Position numbers and translations under genes: made by a program
Assembly (NCBI GenBank): GCA_034185265.1
Contig: JAXFZD010000008.1
Location: 25-64,024, forward strand
Source of the DNA: Bacilli bacterium
GTDB lineage: Bacteria > Bacillota_I > Bacilli_A > RFN20 > CAG-826
Length of the DNA: 64,000 bases
Reading direction: 5' to 3'
In this document: in pieces, positions 54,887 through 64,000 of the stretch
Position numbering within the stretch: the first letter of the stretch is position 1
How the letters are laid out: every line of letters begins with the position of its first letter
Notes under the pieces: model-generated
Databases searched by the model: none
Seen by the model: only the letters and a program-made list of their open reading frames with translations
Told to the model about the DNA's origin: nothing

Positions 54887-56488
54887 ATGAGTAAGAAATT
54901 TTATATCACGACACCTATTTACTATCCTAGCGCAGCGCCACACTTAGGACATTGTTACTGCACAACCATGGCAGATATTTTAGCTAGAAATAAAAGAATG
55001 AGAGGTTTTGATACCTATTTTCTTACAGGATTAGATGAACATGGTGAAAAAATCGAAAAAAATGCAAAAGCCAAAGGAGTTACTCCTCAACAATTTGTTG
55101 ATGAAGTAGCTGTTACTTTTACAGATTTATGGAAAGCCATGCAAATTTCTAATGATGATTTTATTCGTACAACTCAAGAAAGACATTATCTAAAAGTCCA
55201 AAAGATTTTCTCTCAATTATTAGAACAAGGAGATATTTATCTTTCTTCTTATAATGGATGGTATTGCGTTCATGAGGAAACCTACTATACAGAAACTCAA
55301 TTAGATGAGAATCACTGTTGTCCTGAATGTCATAGACCAGTAGAAAAGAAAGACGAAGAAGCTTATTTCTTTAAAGCTGGTAAATATTCAGATTTCCTTT
55401 TAGATTTATATGATAAAAATCCTAAATTTATTTATCCAGTTTCCAAAAAGAATGAAATGGTAAATAACTTCATTAAACCAGGGTTGCAAGATTTATGTGT
55501 TTCTAGAACTTCTTTTGACTGGGGAATTCAAGTCGTTGAAGATCCAAAACACGTTATCTACGTTTGGCTAGATGCTCTTACTAACTATATTACAGCCTTA
55601 GGTTATATGGATTCTGATTGTTATTTATTTGATAAATTCTGGAGAGATGAAGAATGTGAAATTGTTCATCTTATCGGAGCTGACATTACTAGATTCCATA
55701 CAATTTATTGGCCAGAATTCCTTCACTGCTTAGGATTAAGAGAGCCTAATAGAGTATTTGTCCACGGTCTTCTTATGATGAAAGATGGAAAAATGTCTAA
55801 ATCTAGAGGAAATACAATTTCTGCATATCCATTAATTGATCAATATGGAGTAGATTCAGTGAGATATTATTTAGCCTCTGAAATTCCTTTTGGAAGTGAT
55901 GGCGTATTCACTCCAGAAGACTTCATCCATAGAATAAATTTAGATTTATCTAATAATTTAGGGAACCTTGTTAATAGGACAATTTCTATGATTTTCAAAT
56001 ATTTTAACGGAGTTTTACCGGGATTTAATGATAAATTAGATGAATCTGATAAAGAATTAGTTAATTTAAGAAGAGGTACTATCTCAAAATATGAATATCT
56101 TTTTGATGACTTAAAAGTTACTGAAGCTGTAGCTGAAGTAATGAACTTATGTTCAGCAGCAAATAAATATATTGAGAATAAGGCTCCTTGGACTTTATTT
56201 AAAGAAGGAAGAATTGAGGAACTATCGAATGTTATGACTAACCTTGCTAATTCAATTTTTGTAGCTGGAATGCTACTTTCTCCAATCTTAGTCAATAAAT
56301 CAAAAGATATTTTCAAGTCATTAGGATTAGATGAAAAAGTTAACTATGAACTAATTAAAGATGAAGAATATTTAAGAGAAAAGAACGTTATTAAACTTGA
56401 TGCTCTTTTCCCAAGACTAGATGAAAATAAAGAAAAAGAGTTTATCGCTAACATTATGAATACTCCTAAAGAAAAGGCAGCAGCTTAA
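54887..56488 (+). CDS. metG: Methionine--tRNA ligase (short form, no C-terminal tRNA-binding domain)
   Basis: YITTPIYYP, HLGH, GLDEHGEKI, YVWLDAL, KMSKS. Confidence 0.97.
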   Translation: MSKKFYITTPIYYPSAAPHLGHCYCTTMADILARNKRMRGFDTYFLTGLDEHGEKIEKNAKAKGVTPQQFVDEVAVTFTDLWKAMQISNDDFIRTTQERHYLKVQKIFSQLLEQGDIYLSSYNGWYCVHEETYYTETQLDENHCCPECHRPVEKKDEEAYFFKAGKYSDFLLDLYDKNPKFIYPVSKKNEMVNNFIKPGLQDLCVSRTSFDWGIQVVEDPKHVIYVWLDALTNYITALGYMDSDCYLFDKFWRDEECEIVHLIGADITRFHTIYWPEFLHCLGLREPNRVFVHGLLMMKDGKMSKSRGNTISAYPLIDQYGVDSVRYYLASEIPFGSDGVFTPEDFIHRINLDLSNNLGNLVNRTISMIFKYFNGVLPGFNDKLDESDKELVNLRRGTISKYEYLFDDLKVTEAVAEVMNLCSAANKYIENKAPWTLFKEGRIEELSNVMTNLANSIFVAGMLLSPILVNKSKDIFKSLGLDEKVNYELIKDEEYLREKNVIKLDALFPRLDENKEKEFIANIMNTPKEKAAA

Positions 56489-57837
56489 TGGAAAAACTCT
56501 CAATAAAAGAAAAAATATCAGGGATTTGCGTAGATTTAACCTATAAAGGACTAGGTTTAGTTAAATATAAAAATTTTAATATTTTAGTTTCTGGCTTATT
56601 TAAAGACGAAGAAGGTGAGTTTGAAATTCAATATAAAAGAGCTGATTTTTATTATGCCAAGATTCTTAAATTAACAAAGATTTCGCCAGACAGAATTCAG
56701 CCTAAATGCAAGGTATGTAGCGCGTGTGGAGGTTGTTCTTTTCAACAACTTTCTTATGATGCTCAACTTAAGTTTAAAAGAGTTCTAGTTGAAAGTCAGA
56801 TGAGAAAAGTCGGGAAGATAGATTTTCCTGTTGATGAATGCGAAGGAATGGAAGATCCATATTTCTACCGCAATAAAATTCAGATGCCTTTTGGCAAAGA
56901 TAATAGGGGAAATATCTACTCTGGTTTCTATAAAGAAGGAACACATATCATAGTTCCGATCGATAAATGCTATATTGAAGATGAAAGAGCAACTGAAATA
57001 ATGAATACAATTAAAAAGCTCATGAAGTCTTTTAAAATTGAACCATATAATGAAGATAGTAGAAGGGGAATTATAAGACATGTATTAATAAAAACTTCTC
57101 ATTTTAAAGATGAAATCATGGTCGTCTTAGTTACTAATATTGATGTCTTTCCTTCAAGAAAAAACTTCGTGAAAGAATTAGTTAAACTTCATCCAAATAT
57201 TGTTACAGTAGTTCAAAATATCAATTCTAGACACACTAATGTAATCCTAGGAAATAAGGAATATGTCCTTTATGGAAAAGGTTATATTGAAGATTATTTA
57301 TGCGGGTTGAAGTTTAAAATTTCGGCAAGGTCATTTTATCAAACAAATCCTGTAATGACTGAAAAACTCTACAAAACCGCCATAGAATTTGCAAAATTGA
57401 CTGGAAATGAAGTAGTTTTTGATGCTTTTAGTGGTATTGGAACTATAGGATTAATTGCTTCTAAGCATGCTAAAAAAATTATCTCAGTAGAGATTGTTAA
57501 GGATGCTGTAAGAGATGGCATTAAAAACGCGAAAGATAATAATATAAATAACGTTGAGTTTTATTGTGATGATGCAACCAGCTTTGTTTTAAAATCAACT
57601 CAAAAATACGATGTGCTAGTAATGGACCCACCAAGAAAAGGTTCAGATGAAAAGTTTCTTAATGCTGTATTAAAAGCTAAGCCCAAAAGAATTGTGTATG
57701 TTTCTTGCAATCCTTCAACATTGGCTAGAGATTTAAAATATCTGCTTAAGGATTATGAAATAGAAAAAATAAAGCCTTTTGATATGTTCCCTTTTACTCT
57801 ACACGTTGAAACTATAGTAGGACTATATCGAAAATAA
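56488..57837 (+). CDS. rlmD: 23S rRNA (uracil-C5)-methyltransferase RlmD/RumA
   Basis: TRAM N-terminus, C..C..CGGC Fe-S motif, YRNK, FYQTN, DPPRKG, YVSCNPSTLARD, DMFPFTLHVET. Confidence 0.96.
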   Translation: MEKLSIKEKISGICVDLTYKGLGLVKYKNFNILVSGLFKDEEGEFEIQYKRADFYYAKILKLTKISPDRIQPKCKVCSACGGCSFQQLSYDAQLKFKRVLVESQMRKVGKIDFPVDECEGMEDPYFYRNKIQMPFGKDNRGNIYSGFYKEGTHIIVPIDKCYIEDERATEIMNTIKKLMKSFKIEPYNEDSRRGIIRHVLIKTSHFKDEIMVVLVTNIDVFPSRKNFVKELVKLHPNIVTVVQNINSRHTNVILGNKEYVLYGKGYIEDYLCGLKFKISARSFYQTNPVMTEKLYKTAIEFAKLTGNEVVFDAFSGIGTIGLIASKHAKKIISVEIVKDAVRDGIKNAKDNNINNVEFYCDDATSFVLKSTQKYDVLVMDPPRKGSDEKFLNAVLKAKPKRIVYVSCNPSTLARDLKYLLKDYEIEKIKPFDMFPFTLHVETIVGLYRK

Positions 57838-57856
57838 AAGATAATGTTTAATATAA

Positions 57857-57892
57857 TAGACATTAACTTAACTTTCTTGTATACTATAGGCA
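57857..57892 (+). promoter_or_regulatory. Promoter of the XRE-DUF3791 operon, probably leaderless
   Basis: TAGACA-17 nt-TATACT-6 nt-ATG; no SD. Confidence 0.65.
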
Positions 57893-58341
57893 TGGAAAGC
57901 AAATTTGAAATTGGCCAAAAACTTAAAAACAAAAGATTACAACTTAATTTAAGAATGGATGATGTCGCTAAAGAAGTTGGAATCACTAGATCCACATTGT
58001 GGGCTATCGAAAATGGAAATGGTAATTACACCATTGATATCCTTCTTAGATTAGTAAGCTTTTTAAACATGTCTATTGATATCGCTACTCAAACACCAGG
58101 AACTAGAAAAAGAGCCACTAGAACAAATAGTGCTTTGGACAAAAAGGTGAATAGATTCATAGTTATGTGCGTTGAACAATATGCATCTAGCGTTAATCGG
58201 AGTAGTGGAACCCTATATAACGAACTTAAGAAAGCTGGCGTTATTGATGAATTAATAGATGATTATGAAGATATGCATGGTATGTCTACATATTCAATAA
58301 ATGAGTACATTAGTAGAAGATTGTTAGGAGGTACAGCATGA
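57892..58341 (+). CDS. XRE-family HTH fused to DUF3791 domain
   Basis: LKNKRLQLNLRMDDVAKEVGITRSTLWAIENG HTH; C-terminal FIVMCVEQYA...LYNEL...GVIDELIDDYEDMHG matches the DUF3791 pattern. Confidence 0.75.
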   Translation: MESKFEIGQKLKNKRLQLNLRMDDVAKEVGITRSTLWAIENGNGNYTIDILLRLVSFLNMSIDIATQTPGTRKRATRTNSALDKKVNRFIVMCVEQYASSVNRSSGTLYNELKKAGVIDELIDDYEDMHGMSTYSINEYISRRLLGGTA

Positions 58342-58820
58342 TTTTATATCACGGTTCAGATGTCGAAGTTAAAATTCCAAAAATTATTAAATCTGAAAAA
58401 GGAAGAGATTTTGGTTGTGCCTTTTATCTAACCCCTATTAAAGAGCAGGCCGAAAGGATGGCTAAAAGAAAACAAAGGATGAACAAAAGCGGCTCCGCTA
58501 TTGTTAGTGTTTTTGAATTTAATGAAAAAGAAATTAGCGGTTTAAAATACAAATTGTTTAAGAACCCAGATTTAGAATGGCTAGATATGATTATTGAATG
58601 TAGAACAAATCCTTCTTTTGAGCATGGCTACGATATAGTAGAGGGAAAAATAGCGGATGATTCCGTCGGTGAAACAATACTTTTTGTTATTGATGGAGTT
58701 ATCAAAAAAGAAGACGCCATTGAAAGATTAAAATTCCAAAAGATTAATTCTCAAGTCGCTTTTTGTAGCAATGTTTCTTTAAAACTAATTAAGTTCAAAA
58801 ATAGTTACGAGGTCAAATAA
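58338..58820 (+). CDS. DUF3990-family protein (putative ADP-ribosyltransferase fold)
   Basis: MILYHGS...DFGCAFYLT..KEQAERMA, EWLDMI..CR, YDIVEGKIADD, QVAFCS pattern; ATGA overlap with upstream gene. Confidence 0.8.
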   Translation: MILYHGSDVEVKIPKIIKSEKGRDFGCAFYLTPIKEQAERMAKRKQRMNKSGSAIVSVFEFNEKEISGLKYKLFKNPDLEWLDMIIECRTNPSFEHGYDIVEGKIADDSVGETILFVIDGVIKKEDAIERLKFQKINSQVAFCSNVSLKLIKFKNSYEVK

Positions 58821-59539
58821 TGGAACATGTCTTATCCAAAACAATCCTTATATCTCAAACCATTGAACTTATTGCAAAGAGATATAAGCTAAGCATTGAA
58901 GATGCAAGAAATAGATTTTATCAATCAGATGTTATTGGAATGCTGGATGATGATGAAACCGGCCTTTATGGTGAATCAGCACTATATCTTTTATCACTAT
59001 ATGAGAATTATTTTAAAAATAAATGCATTGAAACCAAGAGACTTTTGCTCAGAAAGCTAAGAATTGAAGATGCTGAACCGATGTTTATTAATTGGGCAAG
59101 CGATCCCGAAGTAACTAAATATTCAACTTGGAATCCTCACGAGAATATAGAAGTCACTAAAACTATTATTAACCATTGGCTTGAAGATGAAAAAGATCCA
59201 AAAACAATAAGATTCATTATCACCTTAAAAGAAAGCGATGAACCAATTGGTTCTATTGATGTTGTTAGATATATCGATGATAGTCCCGAGATTGGATATT
59301 GCTTATCAAGAAAATATTGGAATAAAGGTTTAATGACCGAAGCTTGTAAAGCATTTAGTAAATATCTTTTTGATAAAGGTTTTAAAAAAGTATTAATTAA
59401 GGCAGCGGTGGAAAATATCGGTAGCAATCGAGTGATTGAAAAATGTGGTTTCAAATTCACTCATCAGGAGCACCTTGAACATCAATCATCTTTTAAACCA
59501 AATCCAGTAACACTGAATTGCTACGAATTGGTTAAATAA
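58820..59539 (+). CDS. DUF3791-like helical domain fused to a RimJ/RimL-type GNAT acetyltransferase
   Basis: N-terminal IA..Y.LS...A...FY.S.....L.D.ETGLY.ES; then IETKRLLLR, EIGYCL...YWNKGLMTEA, ENIGSNRVIEKCGF. Confidence 0.72.
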   Translation: MEHVLSKTILISQTIELIAKRYKLSIEDARNRFYQSDVIGMLDDDETGLYGESALYLLSLYENYFKNKCIETKRLLLRKLRIEDAEPMFINWASDPEVTKYSTWNPHENIEVTKTIINHWLEDEKDPKTIRFIITLKESDEPIGSIDVVRYIDDSPEIGYCLSRKYWNKGLMTEACKAFSKYLFDKGFKKVLIKAAVENIGSNRVIEKCGFKFTHQEHLEHQSSFKPNPVTLNCYELVK

Positions 59540-59566
59540 CGATATGCCCCTATCGTAGTGACGAGA

Positions 59567-59614
59567 CACGTCGAGACAATAGTTGAATTGTCCTTAAAGG
59601 ATAAAAAAGCGTAA
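59567..59614 (+). repeat. Second copy of the rlmD 3' end (att-like site): HVETIVELSLKDKKA*
   Basis: CAC GTC GAG ACA ATA GTT GAA TTG...TAA versus rlmD CAC GTT GAA ACT ATA GTA GGA CTA...TAA. Confidence 0.8.
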
Positions 59615-59649
59615 TTTTTCATAAAAACACGTCATTTTTGGCACTTTGT

Positions 59650-59676
59650 AAACTGAGCGAGTCTCAGTTTTTCTTT
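59650..59676 (+). terminator. Intrinsic terminator
   Basis: AAACTGAG-CGAGT-CTCAGTTT followed by TTCTTT. Confidence 0.75.
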
Positions 59677-59786
59677 TAGCTAAATAAAATAGGTCTTTAA
59701 ACATAATTTAATGTTGTTGTAGTAAACATGTCTAACAATCTTAATAAACCATACGTAATTGGAAACATGTTTTAAAGAATATTTGT

Positions 59787-59859
59787 TTGGTGCGACATGT
59801 GTAAAAACTCGCTCCGAAATTGGTGCGACATGTGTAAAAACTCGCTCCGAAATTGGTGC
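59787..59859 (+). repeat. Perfect 33-bp tandem repeat (2 copies plus 7 bp)
   Basis: TTGGTGCGACATGTGTAAAAACTCGCTCCGAAA at 59787 and 59820, partial at 59853; directly upstream of TTGTTA-17 nt-TATAAT (59868-59896). Confidence 0.95.
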
Positions 59860-59918
59860 AAAAATGTTTGTTATTCCTCTTATTGCTGAGTATAATAATC
59901 CTAGCGGAGGACAAATTT

Positions 59919-61259
59919 ATGGAAAAAATCTACTTTAGAAGAAAAATAGATGCTTTACTAAAAGAATGGTTCGACAATAAAGATCATTCTCCAGCGGTCA
60001 TATATGGCATAAGGCAGTGTGGAAAAAGTGAAAGTATTAAGCACTTTGGTAAAAACAACTATAAATATGTTAATCACGTTGATTTTTGGAAAACTCCTAA
60101 TGCAACTGCTGCGTTTGACAAATCTTTAGAGGTTGATGAAATAATTAAATCCCTTTCTGTTTTGTTTCCTTCTTTTAAATTTGTTCCGCATGAAACCGTA
60201 TTGATTTTAGACGAGATACAAGATTGCCCTAACGCTAGACTTGCGCTCAAATTCTTTAAAGAAGATGGAAGATTTGATGTAATGGCAAGTGGCTCATATA
60301 TTGGATTAAACATAGACACTAGCGGAGTGGCCAAACCTAGTGGTTCGGAAGATTTATTAGAAATGAAAACAATGGATTTTGAGGAATTTCTGTGGGCTCT
60401 CGGCTATGACGATAATCGCATAACTACAGTTTTAAATTACTTTGCAGAAAAGAAAGAAATTCCTGAAGCAATTCATACACAAATGAAGCAATTGTTTAAT
60501 GAGTATATATGTGTCGGTGGTTATCCAGAAGCGGTTCTAAAATTCGTTCAAACACATAGTTTTTATGAGGCTTTTAAAAAAGTTAGAAGTTTAGTAATTG
60601 ACATCAAAGGAGACCCATCAAAAAGAAGAAATAAAGAAGATAAACCGCTATATACAATTACTGAAGTAGCAAGAATTCAAAAAGCATTTGATTTAATCGC
60701 GTCTTTTATAGTTGATGACAATCATAGATTCGTAACCTCGAAAATAAGTGGTAATAGTTATCAAAGAGATGATGCGGTTAGCTACTTATTAAATTCATCA
60801 GTGGCATTTAAAGCTAATAATGTTCAAGTTCCATCTTTGCCTCTTGGTGTTAGAAAAATAGAAGCGGATTACAAGCTATTTTACGCTGATATTGGAATTA
60901 TGATAAACACCTTAGGCTATGATGTCATTCAAGGCGTTTTAGAGAACAAACTTGGAATGAACAAAGGCTATTTGTATGAAGCCATTGTTGCCGACTCACT
61001 ATACAAAGCCAATATTCCTTTATTCTATTTTGGAAAAGAAAGCGGCTTAGAAGTGGATTTGGTTATTTCATATAAAAGCGAAGCAACACTGATTGAAGCT
61101 AAAGCCACAACTGGTAATGTAAAATCAAGCAAAACAATCATGAAAAATCCAGATCATTATGGCAAAACAAAACTAATTAAAATTGGAGATTATAATGTCT
61201 CTCAAGAAGGAGATATCATTACTATTCCTCATTATCTATCTTTCGCATTAGGAAAGTAA
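59919..61259 (+). CDS. AAA_14 ATPase with DUF4143 / PD-(D/E)XK-like C-terminus
   Basis: Walker A GIRQCGKS, Walker B ILDEIQ, ASGS, YICVGGYP, C-terminal EVDL...LIEAK; SD GGAGG before ATG 59919. Confidence 0.85.
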   Translation: MEKIYFRRKIDALLKEWFDNKDHSPAVIYGIRQCGKSESIKHFGKNNYKYVNHVDFWKTPNATAAFDKSLEVDEIIKSLSVLFPSFKFVPHETVLILDEIQDCPNARLALKFFKEDGRFDVMASGSYIGLNIDTSGVAKPSGSEDLLEMKTMDFEEFLWALGYDDNRITTVLNYFAEKKEIPEAIHTQMKQLFNEYICVGGYPEAVLKFVQTHSFYEAFKKVRSLVIDIKGDPSKRRNKEDKPLYTITEVARIQKAFDLIASFIVDDNHRFVTSKISGNSYQRDDAVSYLLNSSVAFKANNVQVPSLPLGVRKIEADYKLFYADIGIMINTLGYDVIQGVLENKLGMNKGYLYEAIVADSLYKANIPLFYFGKESGLEVDLVISYKSEATLIEAKATTGNVKSSKTIMKNPDHYGKTKLIKIGDYNVSQEGDIITIPHYLSFALGK

Positions 61260-61330
61260 AAAAAGCCAGCGTTTTACCGCCAACTTTGTTGTTACATCAT
61301 CACCACTCTATAGTGAAGATCTTCAGGTTT

Positions 61331-61378
61331 GTAGACTAAAAAGTAAACTAGAAAATAGACTAAACAGTAGACAAAAAA
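61331..61378 (+). repeat. Four degenerate 12-bp tandem repeats
   Basis: GTAGACTAAAAA / GTAAACTAGAAA / ATAGACTAAACA / GTAGACAAAAAA. Confidence 0.7.
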
Positions 61379-61398
61379 GCCTAAACATTTTGTAACGA

Positions 61399-61500
61399 TA
61401 TAATTGACAAAAGCCTCAGCACTGACAAAAATGTCGATTTTACCTTTTAAACCTTTTAATAGCGTGTGTATAATAGACTTGACAAAAACCTCAGTACTGA
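61399..61500 (+). repeat. Two copies of TATAAT...TTGACAAAARCCTCAGYACTGA (operator-like palindrome)
   Basis: 22-bp copies at 61404-61425 and 61479-61500 (20/22 identical), each just after TATAAT; TCAGTACTGA is a perfect palindrome. Confidence 0.75.
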
Positions 61501-61519
61501 GAGAAACGGCAGGTCTATC

Positions 61520-62848
61520 ATGTTTAAAAGAGATAAATATTTAAATCAATTAATTCGTAGTAGAAATAATCACCAGGTCAAAGTAATTACAGGAATGCGT
61601 CGCGCTGGAAAATCGTATTTGATTAACGAAATCTTTTTCGATTGGTTGGTAGAGAACGGTGTTGATGTCACACATATTATTAAGTTTTCATTTGATTCTG
61701 AAATAGATATTCGAAAACTTGATTCATACTTGCCAACCGAATCAACAATTGTGCGAGTCGTTGAAGGTCAAAATATAATCAACAATCGAAAATTCATGCT
61801 TTTTATTGACGACAAAACTAAAGATGAAGGTAACTATATTTTATTATTGGATGAAATTCAAAATTTAGATGATTTCGTTAGAGTACTAAATGGTTATCTT
61901 TATTTGAATAGATTTGATATTTATGTTACAGGAAGTAATTCCCGCTTTTTATCTAGCCAGGTTGATACAGAATTCAGTGGTAGAGGTAACAGAATCCATT
62001 TATTGCCACTTTCTTTTTCAGAATATTTAACGGGCATCGATCTCTATAAGCGAGATGCCTTAGATGAATACATTCGTTATGGAGGGATTCCTCTTGTGGA
62101 ACTTCAATCCAACGATGAGGAAAAGGCTAAAATGGCAATCAGTATTTATAAAGAAACTTATTTAAAGGATATAAAGGACCGCCACCCTCAAGTTGAAGAG
62201 AATAATCTTCACACAACACTTGGAGTAATTGCTTCTATGATTTCAGCACCAATTAATCCAACAAAAATAGAAAACACTTTTAATAGTGCCTTTAACATCA
62301 AACTATCCAACAATGTGATAGGCAATTATATCAACTGGTTCGAAGAAGCATATTTGTTAAATAAAGCTTTGCGATATAACGTTAAAGGAAGGCACTATAT
62401 TGGTTCTCCATATAAGGTATACTTTGAAGATATTGGTATCAGGAATGCCATATTGAATTTTAGAGAAGTAGATGAAACGGATTTAATTGAGAATATTGTT
62501 TATAATGAACTTAGATATCGTGGTTTCAATGTTGATGTCGGTATTGTAACAATTAAAAAGAAAACGGATCGAAAAGATAAAAATGGTAATTGGATATATT
62601 CAGATGTGGACACCGAATGTGACTTTGTTGCTAATAAGGGAGATAAAACATACTACGTTCAAGTTGCTTTAACGATAGACACTCTAGAAAAGAAAGATCA
62701 AGAATATGAATCGCTTAGAAATATTCCAGATTCTTTTAAAAAAGTAATTATTGTAAAAAATGAAGGACTTCACTATCGAACTAGTGAGGGCTTCTTGAGA
62801 TTAAGTCTATTAGATTTTTTGACAAACATTGATTCATTAGATTGGTAA
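61520..62848 (+). CDS. AAA_14 ATPase with DUF4143 C-terminus (second paralogue)
   Basis: Walker A GMRRAGKS, Walker B LLDEIQ, VTGSNS, YIRYGGIP, ENIVYNEL..RG, ECDFV...YYVQVA, RNIPDSFKK. Confidence 0.85.
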   Translation: MFKRDKYLNQLIRSRNNHQVKVITGMRRAGKSYLINEIFFDWLVENGVDVTHIIKFSFDSEIDIRKLDSYLPTESTIVRVVEGQNIINNRKFMLFIDDKTKDEGNYILLLDEIQNLDDFVRVLNGYLYLNRFDIYVTGSNSRFLSSQVDTEFSGRGNRIHLLPLSFSEYLTGIDLYKRDALDEYIRYGGIPLVELQSNDEEKAKMAISIYKETYLKDIKDRHPQVEENNLHTTLGVIASMISAPINPTKIENTFNSAFNIKLSNNVIGNYINWFEEAYLLNKALRYNVKGRHYIGSPYKVYFEDIGIRNAILNFREVDETDLIENIVYNELRYRGFNVDVGIVTIKKKTDRKDKNGNWIYSDVDTECDFVANKGDKTYYVQVALTIDTLEKKDQEYESLRNIPDSFKKVIIVKNEGLHYRTSEGFLRLSLLDFLTNIDSLDW

Positions 62849-62962
62849 TGGATATGTTTCCAATTACTTAAAAAGGTTTGTCATACTTTGTTTCGGGTAA
62901 TGAAAAAGACATATCATTTGTTGTTTTCACGAATAAAAGGCTATACATTTCTAATTTCGGTA

Positions 62963-63004
62963 CATGTCGAGACTGTGGTGTGTCTACGACTTAAAGAGCG
63001 ATAG
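62963..63004 (+). repeat. Third copy of the rlmD 3' end (att-like site): HVETVVCLRLKER*
   Basis: CAT GTC GAG ACT GTG GTG TGT CTA...TAG; a DMFPIT-coding left-arm mimic lies at 62851-62868. Confidence 0.8.
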
Positions 63005-63089
63005 GTCCTATCACTTATATCTAATATAATAAATCATAATATTCAAGCAGTATAGGTGACTCAATCGGGAAGCCCTTATTGTATATATA

Positions 63090-63998
63090 TCAGTGTTTAC
63101 TGACTCCTTCAAATCCTTGGAAGGTAACAAAGCTATCATTGATCTTTTTCACAACGTTATCAAAGTTATTGAGATTGAATTTTAGCGTAGCTTGAACATT
63201 GAAATTAGTGTTGAATCTGATAATAGGGTCTAGTGTATTGTAGTCACAATCAATTCTCACTAGATTAGACGTATTTAGATCAAAATAGAATGTCGTTGTG
63301 TAGCGGTAGTTACCTTTGGTCAAACTGCTCCAGAAACCATCTTTTGGTTGATTCTTCATTGATACGGGTAATTCCACTGGTACACCTTTGCTAGTTTCTT
63401 CAATGATGAGATATTTCTCACTCAATTTGTGGGTATGGGCGATTGGGTCAGAGAATTGGCCCCATTCATCGGAATTGTAGGTGAGACCACCAAAGGTGAG
63501 AGATGTTCTAATCATATTATAGTTCATCATTACCATGATATCGTTGCATGCCATATATGTTTCTTGTTTAAGAGACATCTTCTCATAAGCAGGATCGCCT
63601 ATAGATGGGTATAGAAGTGGAATTGAGTCACTATAATAACTATCATAATTGATATTAGAACCACCGTATTCTAGCCTCCCGTCGTGAAAGCCATATTCAA
63701 CTTTATCATATAGACTAGCGGATTCTGCTTTTCGATTGGTTAATAGTAGTTCATCTTTGTCATTGGAGGCACTTAGATAGAAGAACTCGTTGTATCCATC
63801 TTTAGATAGTTCTCTATAATTAGCGTATTGCCCCTCAATAGTGGTGTTAAAAAACCCACTTGTAAATTTATAGTTAAAATCTAATGGTGAGATATTAAGT
63901 TTACTAACTAAAGTTTGATATTCATCCTCACTGAGTTGTGCATTTGTTAGTTCTTGACTAGTTCCATCATTAAGTGTGACAGTTGCTTCATCAACATA
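63090..63998 (-). CDS. Hypothetical protein, 5'-truncated by the window edge (more than 300 aa)
   Basis: The ORF-track 162-aa ORF stays open in frame for 140 more codons to the window end (YVDEATVTLNDGTSQEL...AYEKMSLKQ); rich in Tyr, Asn, Ser and Thr, no recognised motif. Confidence 0.75.
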   Translation of the reverse strand, partial: YVDEATVTLNDGTSQELTNAQLSEDEYQTLVSKLNISPLDFNYKFTSGFFNTTIEGQYANYRELSKDGYNEFFYLSASNDKDELLLTNRKAESASLYDKVEYGFHDGRLEYGGSNINYDSYYSDSIPLLYPSIGDPAYEKMSLKQETYMACNDIMVMMNYNMIRTSLTFGGLTYNSDEWGQFSDPIAHTHKLSEKYLIIEETSKGVPVELPVSMKNQPKDGFWSSLTKGNYRYTTTFYFDLNTSNLVRIDCDYNTLDPIIRFNTNFNVQATLKFNLNNFDNVVKKINDSFVTFQGFEGVSKH

Positions 63999-64000
63999 GA

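Follow-up and report, generated by a model that had tools for sequence, protein, structure and literature searches.

In staphylococci, staphylococcal cassette chromosome (SCC) and pseudo-SCC elements form composite islands at the 3' end of rlmH (orfX), and tandem SCC-like defence cassettes are mobilised there by CcrAB or CcrC (PMC11470126, PMC13739063). The rumA/rlmD gene is a target of single large serine integrases, namely those of streptococcal integrative and conjugative elements (ICEs), those of streptococcal integrative and mobilizable elements (IMEs), of C. difficile CTn5 and of an Erysipelothrix phage (PMC4701971, PMC5704250, PMC12785378). Non-autonomous att-flanked elements, the cis-mobilizable elements (CIMEs) of the ICESt1/ICESt3 family, become stacked by successive integration (PMC5704250). 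In the present study, we describe a tandem array of small cassettes inserted in the final codons of rlmD in a Bacilli bacterium (GTDB lineage Bacillota_I; Bacilli_A; RFN20; CAG-826). The array lies in a 64,000-nt stretch of contig JAXFZD010000008.1 (positions 25 to 64,024 of the forward strand; assembly GCA_034185265.1), hereafter called the window. The host lineage comprises uncultured gut and rumen Bacilli that were earlier classed as Mollicutes. No description of such rlmD cassette arrays was found in the searched literature.

SCC/pseudo-SCC islands and the accretion of CIMEs appear to be the closest known analogues of this locus, and SCC the closest working one. Both the SCC islands and the rlmD array occupy the final codons of a gene that encodes an rRNA methyltransferase and is kept intact, both consist of tandem elements divided by repeated att sequences, and both have cargo rich in defence genes. 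The newest SCC element adjoins the target gene, and we propose the same order for rlmD arrays. Many SCC-type elements have no recombinase of their own and depend for movement in trans on the large serine recombinases (LSRs) of a neighbour, a step that may also operate on the rlmD cassettes. However, the array targets rlmD and not rlmH, the site of CcrAB/CcrC, and is found in another host lineage. Its cassettes are far smaller (0.25-3.4 kb, often one gene), with up to nine sites per array, and one family of their arms is a conserved 112-nt module. The crossover would also fall at the codons of the catalytic Glu, so that every cassette must encode a functional enzyme end.

The ICEs, IMEs and prophages at rumA/rlmD share the target gene with the array. 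Elements with an LSR occupy the same core in relatives, and cassette 1 of the window has both arms of one of them, whereas integrase, relaxase and phage genes are absent from the window cassettes. Streptococcal ICEs have their att site within the integrase gene, and their insertion changes the C-terminus and frame of RumA; in contrast, the frame and the HVET motif are restored at the rlmD array, and the LSR gene of relatives, where present, is convergent with rlmD at ~40-80 nt from the core. Similar to CIMEs, the window cassettes are att-flanked and lack recombination and transfer genes, and there is evidence in the array for an origin by recombinase loss. CIMEs of the ICESt1/ICESt3 family belong to tyrosine-recombinase ICEs and are few per locus, whereas rlmD arrays comprise many compact cassettes with standardised long arms round unrelated cargo.

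The array resembles an integron in having small cassettes, many of them co-oriented with rlmD, which possess their own recombination sites, enter at a fixed point and are reshuffled in order among genomes. It differs from an integron in that the entry site lies inside a housekeeping gene, between metG and rlmD as its neighbours, with no adjoining IntI-type tyrosine integrase, and in that the arms do not fold as attC hairpins. The initial annotation of this DNA had proposed a serine-recombinase analogue of an integron; the array of small cassettes with their own sites fits this analogy, which is limited by the lack of an adjacent integrase and of attC-like folding. The cassettes also seem to have promoters of their own, which is at most suggestive, as scans for promoters and terminators gave no enrichment over shuffles. 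The features that set this locus apart are the rlmD target and its host, the small and numerous cassettes, the long standard arms and the junction at catalytic codons.

The cassette array at the end of rlmD

The degenerate core CAYGTNGARACNRTNGT was found at 57802, 59567 and 62963 in a pattern scan of the window, each time on the + strand. Three copies compare with 0.01 expected, and 0 of 100 shuffles reached three. The same three cores are the only copies in the whole assembly (1.17 Mb, 44 contigs, 87.6% complete), in which the reversed-pattern control gave 0, and the motif is thus not at background frequency. The last rlmD codons had been reported to recur at both downstream positions, and this is borne out by open tails with in-frame stop codons, which read HVETIVGLYRK (57802), HVETIVELSLKDKKA (59567) and HVETVVCLRLKER (62963). 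GATATG stands 1 nt past the preceding stop codon at 59541 and 2 nt past it at 62851, also as reported. Its distance to the core can now be specified as 21 nt in rlmD, 26 nt at site 2 and 112 nt at site 3. Each core marks one junction of the tandem array, whose insertion point lies in the final rlmD codons (Table 1). The contig stops 385 nt beyond the window end and the far end of the array is, therefore, not assembled; a search of the window genome found neither further arm copies nor this far end.

Pfam assigned HTH_3+DUF3791, DUF3990 and DUF3791+GNAT proteins and two AAA_14+DUF4143 proteins to the intervals between the sites. PADLOC classified the first three as the defence candidate PDC-M13 and both ATPases as the defence candidate PDC-S01, in agreement with the predicted defence-type cargo. 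The modules had also been described as recombinase-free. No Resolvase or Recombinase domain was detected by Pfam in 57.8-64 kb of the window, which holds only a 13-codon LSR relic.

Table 1. Positions of rlmD and of the parts of the cassette array in the window.
Feature	Position	Strand	Basis
rlmD (23S rRNA m5U methyltransferase, 449 aa)	56488-57837	+	Pfam tRNA_U5-meth_tr 8.5e-26; S. pneumoniae SP_1029 structures 1e-92
B arm, the attachment half-site on the host side, GATATGTTCCCTTTTACTCTA, codes for DMFPFTL	57781-57801	+	Conserved motif in relatives
Cassette 1: core and tail HVETIVGLYRK with stop (57802-57837), three genes, right arm	57802-59566	+	Homology to G125:C88
HTH-DUF3791 gene of cassette 1	57892-58341	+	Pfam; PADLOC PDC-M13A/B/C trio
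DUF3990 gene of cassette 1	58338-58820	+	Pfam; PADLOC PDC-M13A/B/C trio
DUF3791-GNAT gene of cassette 1	58820-59539	+	Pfam; PADLOC PDC-M13A/B/C trio
Right arm of cassette 1 (site-2 type, 26 nt), GATATGCCCCTATCGTAGTGACGAGA	59541-59566	+	Same arm type in G274, G125, G007
Left arm of cassette 2a: core and tail HVETIVELSLKDKKA with stop (59567-59614), terminator-like hairpin (59650-59670)	59567-59670	+	
Cassette 2a cargo, AAA_14+DUF4143 ATPase (446 aa)	59919-61259	+	Pfam; PADLOC PDC-S01 2.6e-104
Decayed 2a/2b junction: hairpin (61262-61287) and LSR relic (61292-61333)	61262-61333	-	No core or arm remaining
Cassette 2b cargo, AAA_14+DUF4143 ATPase (442 aa)	61520-62848	+	Pfam; PADLOC PDC-S01 2.7e-92
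112-nt right arm ("unit"): B-like start GATATGTTTCCAATTAC, three direct repeats AAAAGGC-N5-CAT, end CTAATTTCGGTA	62851-62962	+	
Left arm of cassette 3: core and tail HVETVVCLRLKER with stop (62963-63004), ~55 nt more	62963-63060	+	80-87% identity to cassette left ends in six other genomes
Cassette 3 cargo, 340-aa predicted lipoprotein gene	63090-64000, past window end to ~64112	-	Open reading frame; N-terminal LIGC lipobox-like signal

Evidence for discrete cassettes came from cassette 1. Related genomes (G-numbers, with C-numbers for their contigs) were taken from 401 sampled genomes of the order, while L-numbers denote loci or contigs, such as the metagenome contigs L174 and L177. Positions 57802-59577 of the window are 88.3% identical over 1,776 nt to G125:C88, which belongs to another family of the same order. 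The identity opens at the first base of core 1, spans the 26-nt arm GATATGCCCCTATCGTAGTGACGAGA and ends inside core 2, and the flanks on both sides are unrelated. The G125 copy lies away from rlmD, behind the arm of another cassette in an array. The rlmD genes of the two genomes are barely alignable, and RlmD proteins are just 60-65% identical even within the genus of the window; therefore, cassette 1 moved horizontally. Since the homology starts at core 1, the tail HVETIVGLYRK belongs to the cassette itself, and the first cassette supplies the end of RlmD, as the initial annotation had suggested.

The product of rlmD ends in ...FDMFPFTLHVETIVGLYRK, and its last 12 codons, from the breakpoint at 57802 onward, come from cassette 1. 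The motif GAYATGTTYCC(N10) precedes the core in rlmD of every relative examined. The C-terminus of S. pneumoniae SP_1029, which has the nearest solved structures, reads ...DLFPQTHHVETV, and one deposited variant is altered exactly at the Glu of HVET (HVQT). We take this Glu to be the catalytic base, as in the m5U methyltransferases RumA (Glu424) and TrmA (Glu358). The crossover would therefore sit at the codons of the catalytic residue, and RlmD activity would need cassettes that bring H-V-E-T and the last strand. This would explain why the cores vary only at wobble positions. Many same-genus assemblies break a few hundred bases past the rlmD core, as expected of a strain-variable spot.

Arrays of this kind are widespread in relatives. 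Between two and eight cores per genome were frequent among the 401 genomes, against 0-1 for the control, and the largest array has nine cores over 22.6 kb downstream of rlmD (G082). The same cassettes and arms occur at different array positions, with different neighbours, in other genera. One combination of cargo and unit has seven different right-hand neighbours, and the GLYRK and VACLRLKER left arms each head unrelated cargo. Together with the core-exact breakpoints, these results support the view of the cassettes as discrete, shuffled units that are reordered at the cores. Judging from translations read by eye, the cargo elsewhere includes two C5 methyltransferase-like, SbcCD-like and macro-domain-like proteins; further DUF4143 ATPases among it were confirmed by phmmer.

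Fused ATPase cassettes and the long arms

Three modules had been predicted, of ~1.8 kb, of ~3.4 kb and one running off the window. The first and the third were upheld, while the 3.4-kb module is not a single unit. Block 2 (59567-62962) consists of two fused PDC-S01 ATPase cassettes, 2a and 2b, the shared junction of which is lost. The tail type '...LKDKK' and the hairpin after it are also present at the left ends of LSR-bearing elements. The second ATPase cassette (ATPase2) has 95.6% nucleotide identity with G334:C124 and with one metagenome contig and 76% with G319, and homology to other ATPase2 cassettes opens only at 61331-61333. The minus strand of 61292-61333 contains 13 codons, YKPEDLHYRVVMM, and a stop, which resemble the C-terminus of an LSR. 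This relic is identical at 9/13 positions to the extreme C-terminus of rlmD-linked LSRs (...FRPEFLHYKVVMM), with the stop at the same place (blastx, E=0.003, small library). The order at the left end of rlmD LSR elements is tail, hairpin and LSR (minus). Therefore, an LSR gene was once present at the 2a/2b junction and was deleted along with the core and arm. At least one junction (2a/2b) shows descent from an LSR-bearing element by deletion. The present mobilisable unit of block 2, if any, would be 59567-62962. A decayed core at 61296-61310 was considered and rejected; the alignment was weak, and the stretch is better read as the minus-strand relic of the LSR C-terminus.

Junction decay was also observed elsewhere. 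In L174, a junction-removing deletion of 65 nt took away the last 22 nt of the 112-nt arm, the core and the tail. In L099, which is the same as G334:C124, the 112-nt arm is cut at about position 100 and no intact core is present. L099 (4785 nt) carries the ATPase2 cassette, the shortened arm and two more open reading frames (ORFs), and both of its ends are identical over ~140 nt, which indicates a circular path or a tandem repeat. Upstream of ATPase1 in the window, a perfect 33-nt tandem duplication, GGTGCGACATGTGTAAAAACTCGCTCCGAAATT, is present in two copies at 59789-59854, and ATPase2 is preceded, at about 61404-61425 and 61479-61500, by a similar 22-nt repeat (20/22 matching). The minus strand of 59725-59771, between the site-2 hairpin and ATPase1, contains inverted rlmD-like motifs, AACATGTTTCCAATTAC and GACATGTTTAC, which read NMFPIT...DMFTT and are possibly a relic of an inverted arm.

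Site 3 is preceded by the 112-nt arm, which holds an inverted GATATG/CATATC pair in addition to its direct repeats. This arm was found at 83-90% identity in ~20 of the 401 genomes, representing at least 12 genera and two families, and also in 17 species genomes and 18 metagenome contigs. The named genome records with the arm are all metagenome-assembled genomes (MAGs) of 'Bacilli', 'Bacillales' or 'Mollicutes' from the rumen or the horse or human gut; one metagenome contig bears a marine title. Among 20 aligned copies, the left edge of the arm is exactly GAYATG, 0-6 nt past the stop codons of at least six unrelated genes, and the right edge is ...CGGTA immediately before CAYGT. Among 25 distinct junctions, which were found without the core pattern, the final 28 nt of the arm hardly vary; the 15 nt that follow encode H[VI]ET[VI] in ~20/25, with the variation concentrated at third codon positions. 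On neither strand did the arm fold better than its shuffled versions (z = -0.25 and -0.10), and neither covariation nor an Rfam match was detected; an attC-like hairpin or a structured RNA was rejected on these results. We also rejected the possibility that the inner 93 nt of the unit is an insert resembling a miniature inverted-repeat transposable element within varied rlmD-like arms, as the B-like start co-evolves with the rest and varies far less than real rlmD arms. An autonomous phage with these arms was not found, in that neither arm matched in viral contigs.

The left arm at 62963-63060 is conserved across genera as a cassette start and, therefore, opens a third cassette. In several genomes, the tail HVETV[AV]CLRLKER with its stop and ~55 nt forms the working rlmD end, behind which come a DUF4143 ATPase gene and the 112-nt arm, and the recurrent minimal order is rlmD, tail, ATPase, unit and next tail. 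The site-3 tail is not a displaced native rlmD end because the tail and the ~55 nt are conserved across genera as a cassette left end. The predicted lipoprotein of cassette 3 had no match in Pfam, PADLOC or NCBIfam. A cassette without cargo was observed in L177 (-143 to +112 relative to its unit, ~255 nt), in which a left arm with a VACLRIK tail is directly joined to the 112-nt right arm; a complete DMFP...HVET site of the host lies before this cassette.

Recombinases and competing explanations

LSR-bearing elements are present exactly at the rlmD core in eight genomes (G224, G188, G274, G334, G288, G285, G096 and G308), the last of which is of the same genus as the window, and the lineage thus has LSRs that sit at this site. 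In G224, a 592-aa LSR ends 190 nt before the distal core, and in G188, the LSR element is followed by a recombinase-less cassette. Among the 18 best homologues of the G274 LSR, 8/18 lie within 1.5 kb of a core and are usually convergent with rlmD. The G274 element extends ~9.4 kb from its LSR-proximal core to a site-2-type arm, and its left arm (CATGTGGAAACTATAGTAGGACTATATCG...) and its right arm (ending in GATATATCCCTATTGTAGTGACGACA at the junction) both match cassette 1. The left ends of the rlmD-integrated elements G334:C51, G288:C15 and G285:C33 read tail, LSR (-), a 255-309-aa ORF (-) and tyrosine integrase (+), and these elements combine two recombinase types each. In 15 relatives, the 18 kb downstream of rlmD contained no recombinase, and a recombinase hidden in longer unit-bounded elements was rejected because no ORF matched LSR or tyrosine-integrase queries (phmmer).

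The only serine recombinases of the window genome are a tandem LSR pair (566 and 550 aa) on contig C9. Next to this pair are a gene for a DUF4143 ATPase and the sole tyrosine integrase that was found in this genome. The tyrosine integrases of the G334, G288 and G285 elements match the C9 integrase (up to 1.5e-153), with the same integrase-plus-LSR layout. Short unit-family arms (GATGTCTCCAATTGTC...CCGTA up to the junction), with decayed cores, lie on both sides of the C9 ATPase gene, and the arm adjoining the LSR pair runs into a decayed tail, CAC GAA TTT GCT CTC.... C9 therefore carries a further, decayed part of an array of this kind, and its LSRs are in-genome candidates for acting in trans. 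The C9 island (6-19 kb, L008) also encodes a Schlafen/AlbA_2 ATPase and a Bro-N/KilAC antirepressor. The tyrosine integrase together with the LSR pair recurs in G246:C1, and G264, G334 and G274 have just the LSR pair. A second type of tandem LSR pair (~430-440 aa and ~525-527 aa) was found in G263:C1, G342:C26 and G282:C3, not at rlmD arrays.

We favour a model in which the array consists of non-autonomous cassettes and serine recombinases that target rlmD move them in trans, and assign a probability of roughly 0.7 to this model. The rlmD codons for ...DMFPxTx and HVET..., on either side of the junction, would serve as the chromosomal attachment site of large-serine-type recombinases in this lineage. 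A cassette opens at the core with its own last RlmD codons, which include the catalytic Glu and the final hydrophobic strand, often followed by a terminator and/or promoter, and closes with a right arm whose GAYATG-YYCC motif directly trails the last stop codon. The circular cassette would recombine with the rlmD-proximal site, at or beside the invariant GT of CAYGT. With entry at this site, the newest cassette would donate the working C-terminus and push older ones downstream. LSR-bearing elements that use the same site may supply the recombinase in trans, also for the 112-nt arm, and some cassettes probably derive from such elements by loss of the LSR gene. Decay of junctions can fuse neighbouring cassettes, such as 2a and 2b. 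The array may still be active. These points essentially support the interpretation in the initial annotation, with the corrections given above.

The geometry of one arm is consistent with this model. In the left half of site 2, the GATATG-YYCC motif of the arm lies 5 nt farther out from the core than in rlmD. An outer zinc-ribbon motif shifted 5 bp outward distinguishes attP from attB half-sites of serine integrases (PMC3783163). The offset of the site-2 arm may thus fit the attP/attB geometry of large serine integrases; it is not evident in the right halves of the sites nor in the 112-nt arm.

Several points weigh against trans-mobilisation by LSRs. Canonical unidirectional LSRs do not insert into an attL-like site, and the site-1 tail carried by the cassette has an attB-like, not attP-like, symmetry when the sequence is read by eye. 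No recombinase was found in ~55 contexts of the 112-nt arm, and a minimal 50-bp LSR attP does not account for its length, three repeats and distant B-like start. The C9 LSR pair cannot be called cognate because it shows just 32-39% identity to rlmD-linked LSRs. No near-identical strain pair with cassette gain or loss was found; the sole candidate pair, L178 and L187, proved to be the same sequence. Moreover, some array junctions have decayed, and part of the array may now be fixed.

A different explanation, which we regard as unlikely, is that the cassettes are inert relics, the remains of successive full-size LSR elements (ICEs, IMEs and prophages) at rlmD, comparable to CIME-like scars that are no longer mobile. 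CIMEs are documented to arise by decay and subsequent accretion (PMC5704250). The LSR C-terminal relic between the two ATPase genes, the lost or deleted junctions in the window, L174 and L099, and a window assembly without a clearly cognate LSR are in line with such relics. However, inert remains do not readily explain small cassettes at 88-96% nucleotide identity across families and genera, with varied neighbours and core-exact breakpoints, nor long arms that are conserved while the host genes diverge. Many unrelated cassettes have their cargo stop codon 0-6 nt from the arm, and L177 holds an arm pair of ~255 nt without cargo, which also argues against this explanation.

An enzyme other than an LSR may act on the 112-nt-arm cassettes, and this also appears improbable. 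Candidates are a small serine recombinase for which the arm would be a res-like multi-site, a tyrosine recombinase that uses the repeats as arm-type sites, or a host enzyme, as for integrative mobile elements exploiting Xer (IMEX) at dif. The 112-nt length, three direct repeats and inverted pair far exceed the needs of an LSR attP, no LSR was linked to this arm in its ~55 contexts, and a tyrosine integrase accompanies rlmD-linked LSR elements. Small serine recombinases (~200 aa) are encoded in most genomes with the 112-nt arm; however, they are never adjacent to arrays, and the window genome has none. The arm also ends at the same core as LSR-element arms and alternates with them within arrays, and a short arm of the same family directly abuts the LSR pair on C9. 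These features argue against another enzyme. Very improbable is an origin without site-specific recombination, by local duplication or gene conversion of tails and the swapping of blocks by homologous recombination via short rlmD-like stretches: long B-like copies at some junctions, a ~45-nt tail duplication in G297 and full DMFP...HVET copies in L177 and L094 speak for it, but breakpoints in different genera share a single position, nothing except short motifs relates the arms to rlmD, LSR elements occupy the identical position, and the tails differ in length and at wobble positions and are, therefore, not recent local duplicates.

Implications of the array

A more far-reaching form of the trans-mobilisation model is possible, although we hold it only tentatively. 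The rlmD locus may be a dedicated gene-capture platform of gut and rumen Bacilli whose logic is that of serine recombinases. Cassettes would enter at one fixed site, the catalytic end of rlmD, and the standard arms, comprising the 112-nt unit and the ~100-nt tail-encoding left arm with a promoter or terminator, would be the equivalent of attC round mostly defence-type cargo. The recombinase in trans could be the LSR of a visiting element or a host enzyme. If this is the case, the platform would represent a second, independent invention of the integron principle.

If the proposed mechanism is correct, the array is a route by which an abundant, uncultured lineage of the gut and rumen, with small genomes, stocks and exchanges candidate defence genes. 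The SCC principle, in which recombinase-less cassettes occupy the 3' end of a gene for an rRNA methyltransferase, would thereby extend to another gene, to other hosts and to units of much smaller size. With the crossover at the codons of the catalytic Glu, every cassette must bring a working enzyme end, and this requirement would be a testable tie between a mobile element and the fitness of its host. The arms provide a simple sequence tag for mining new cargo genes. Moreover, the standard arms and the rlmD-specific LSR clade could become integration tools for bacteria that are hard to engineer.

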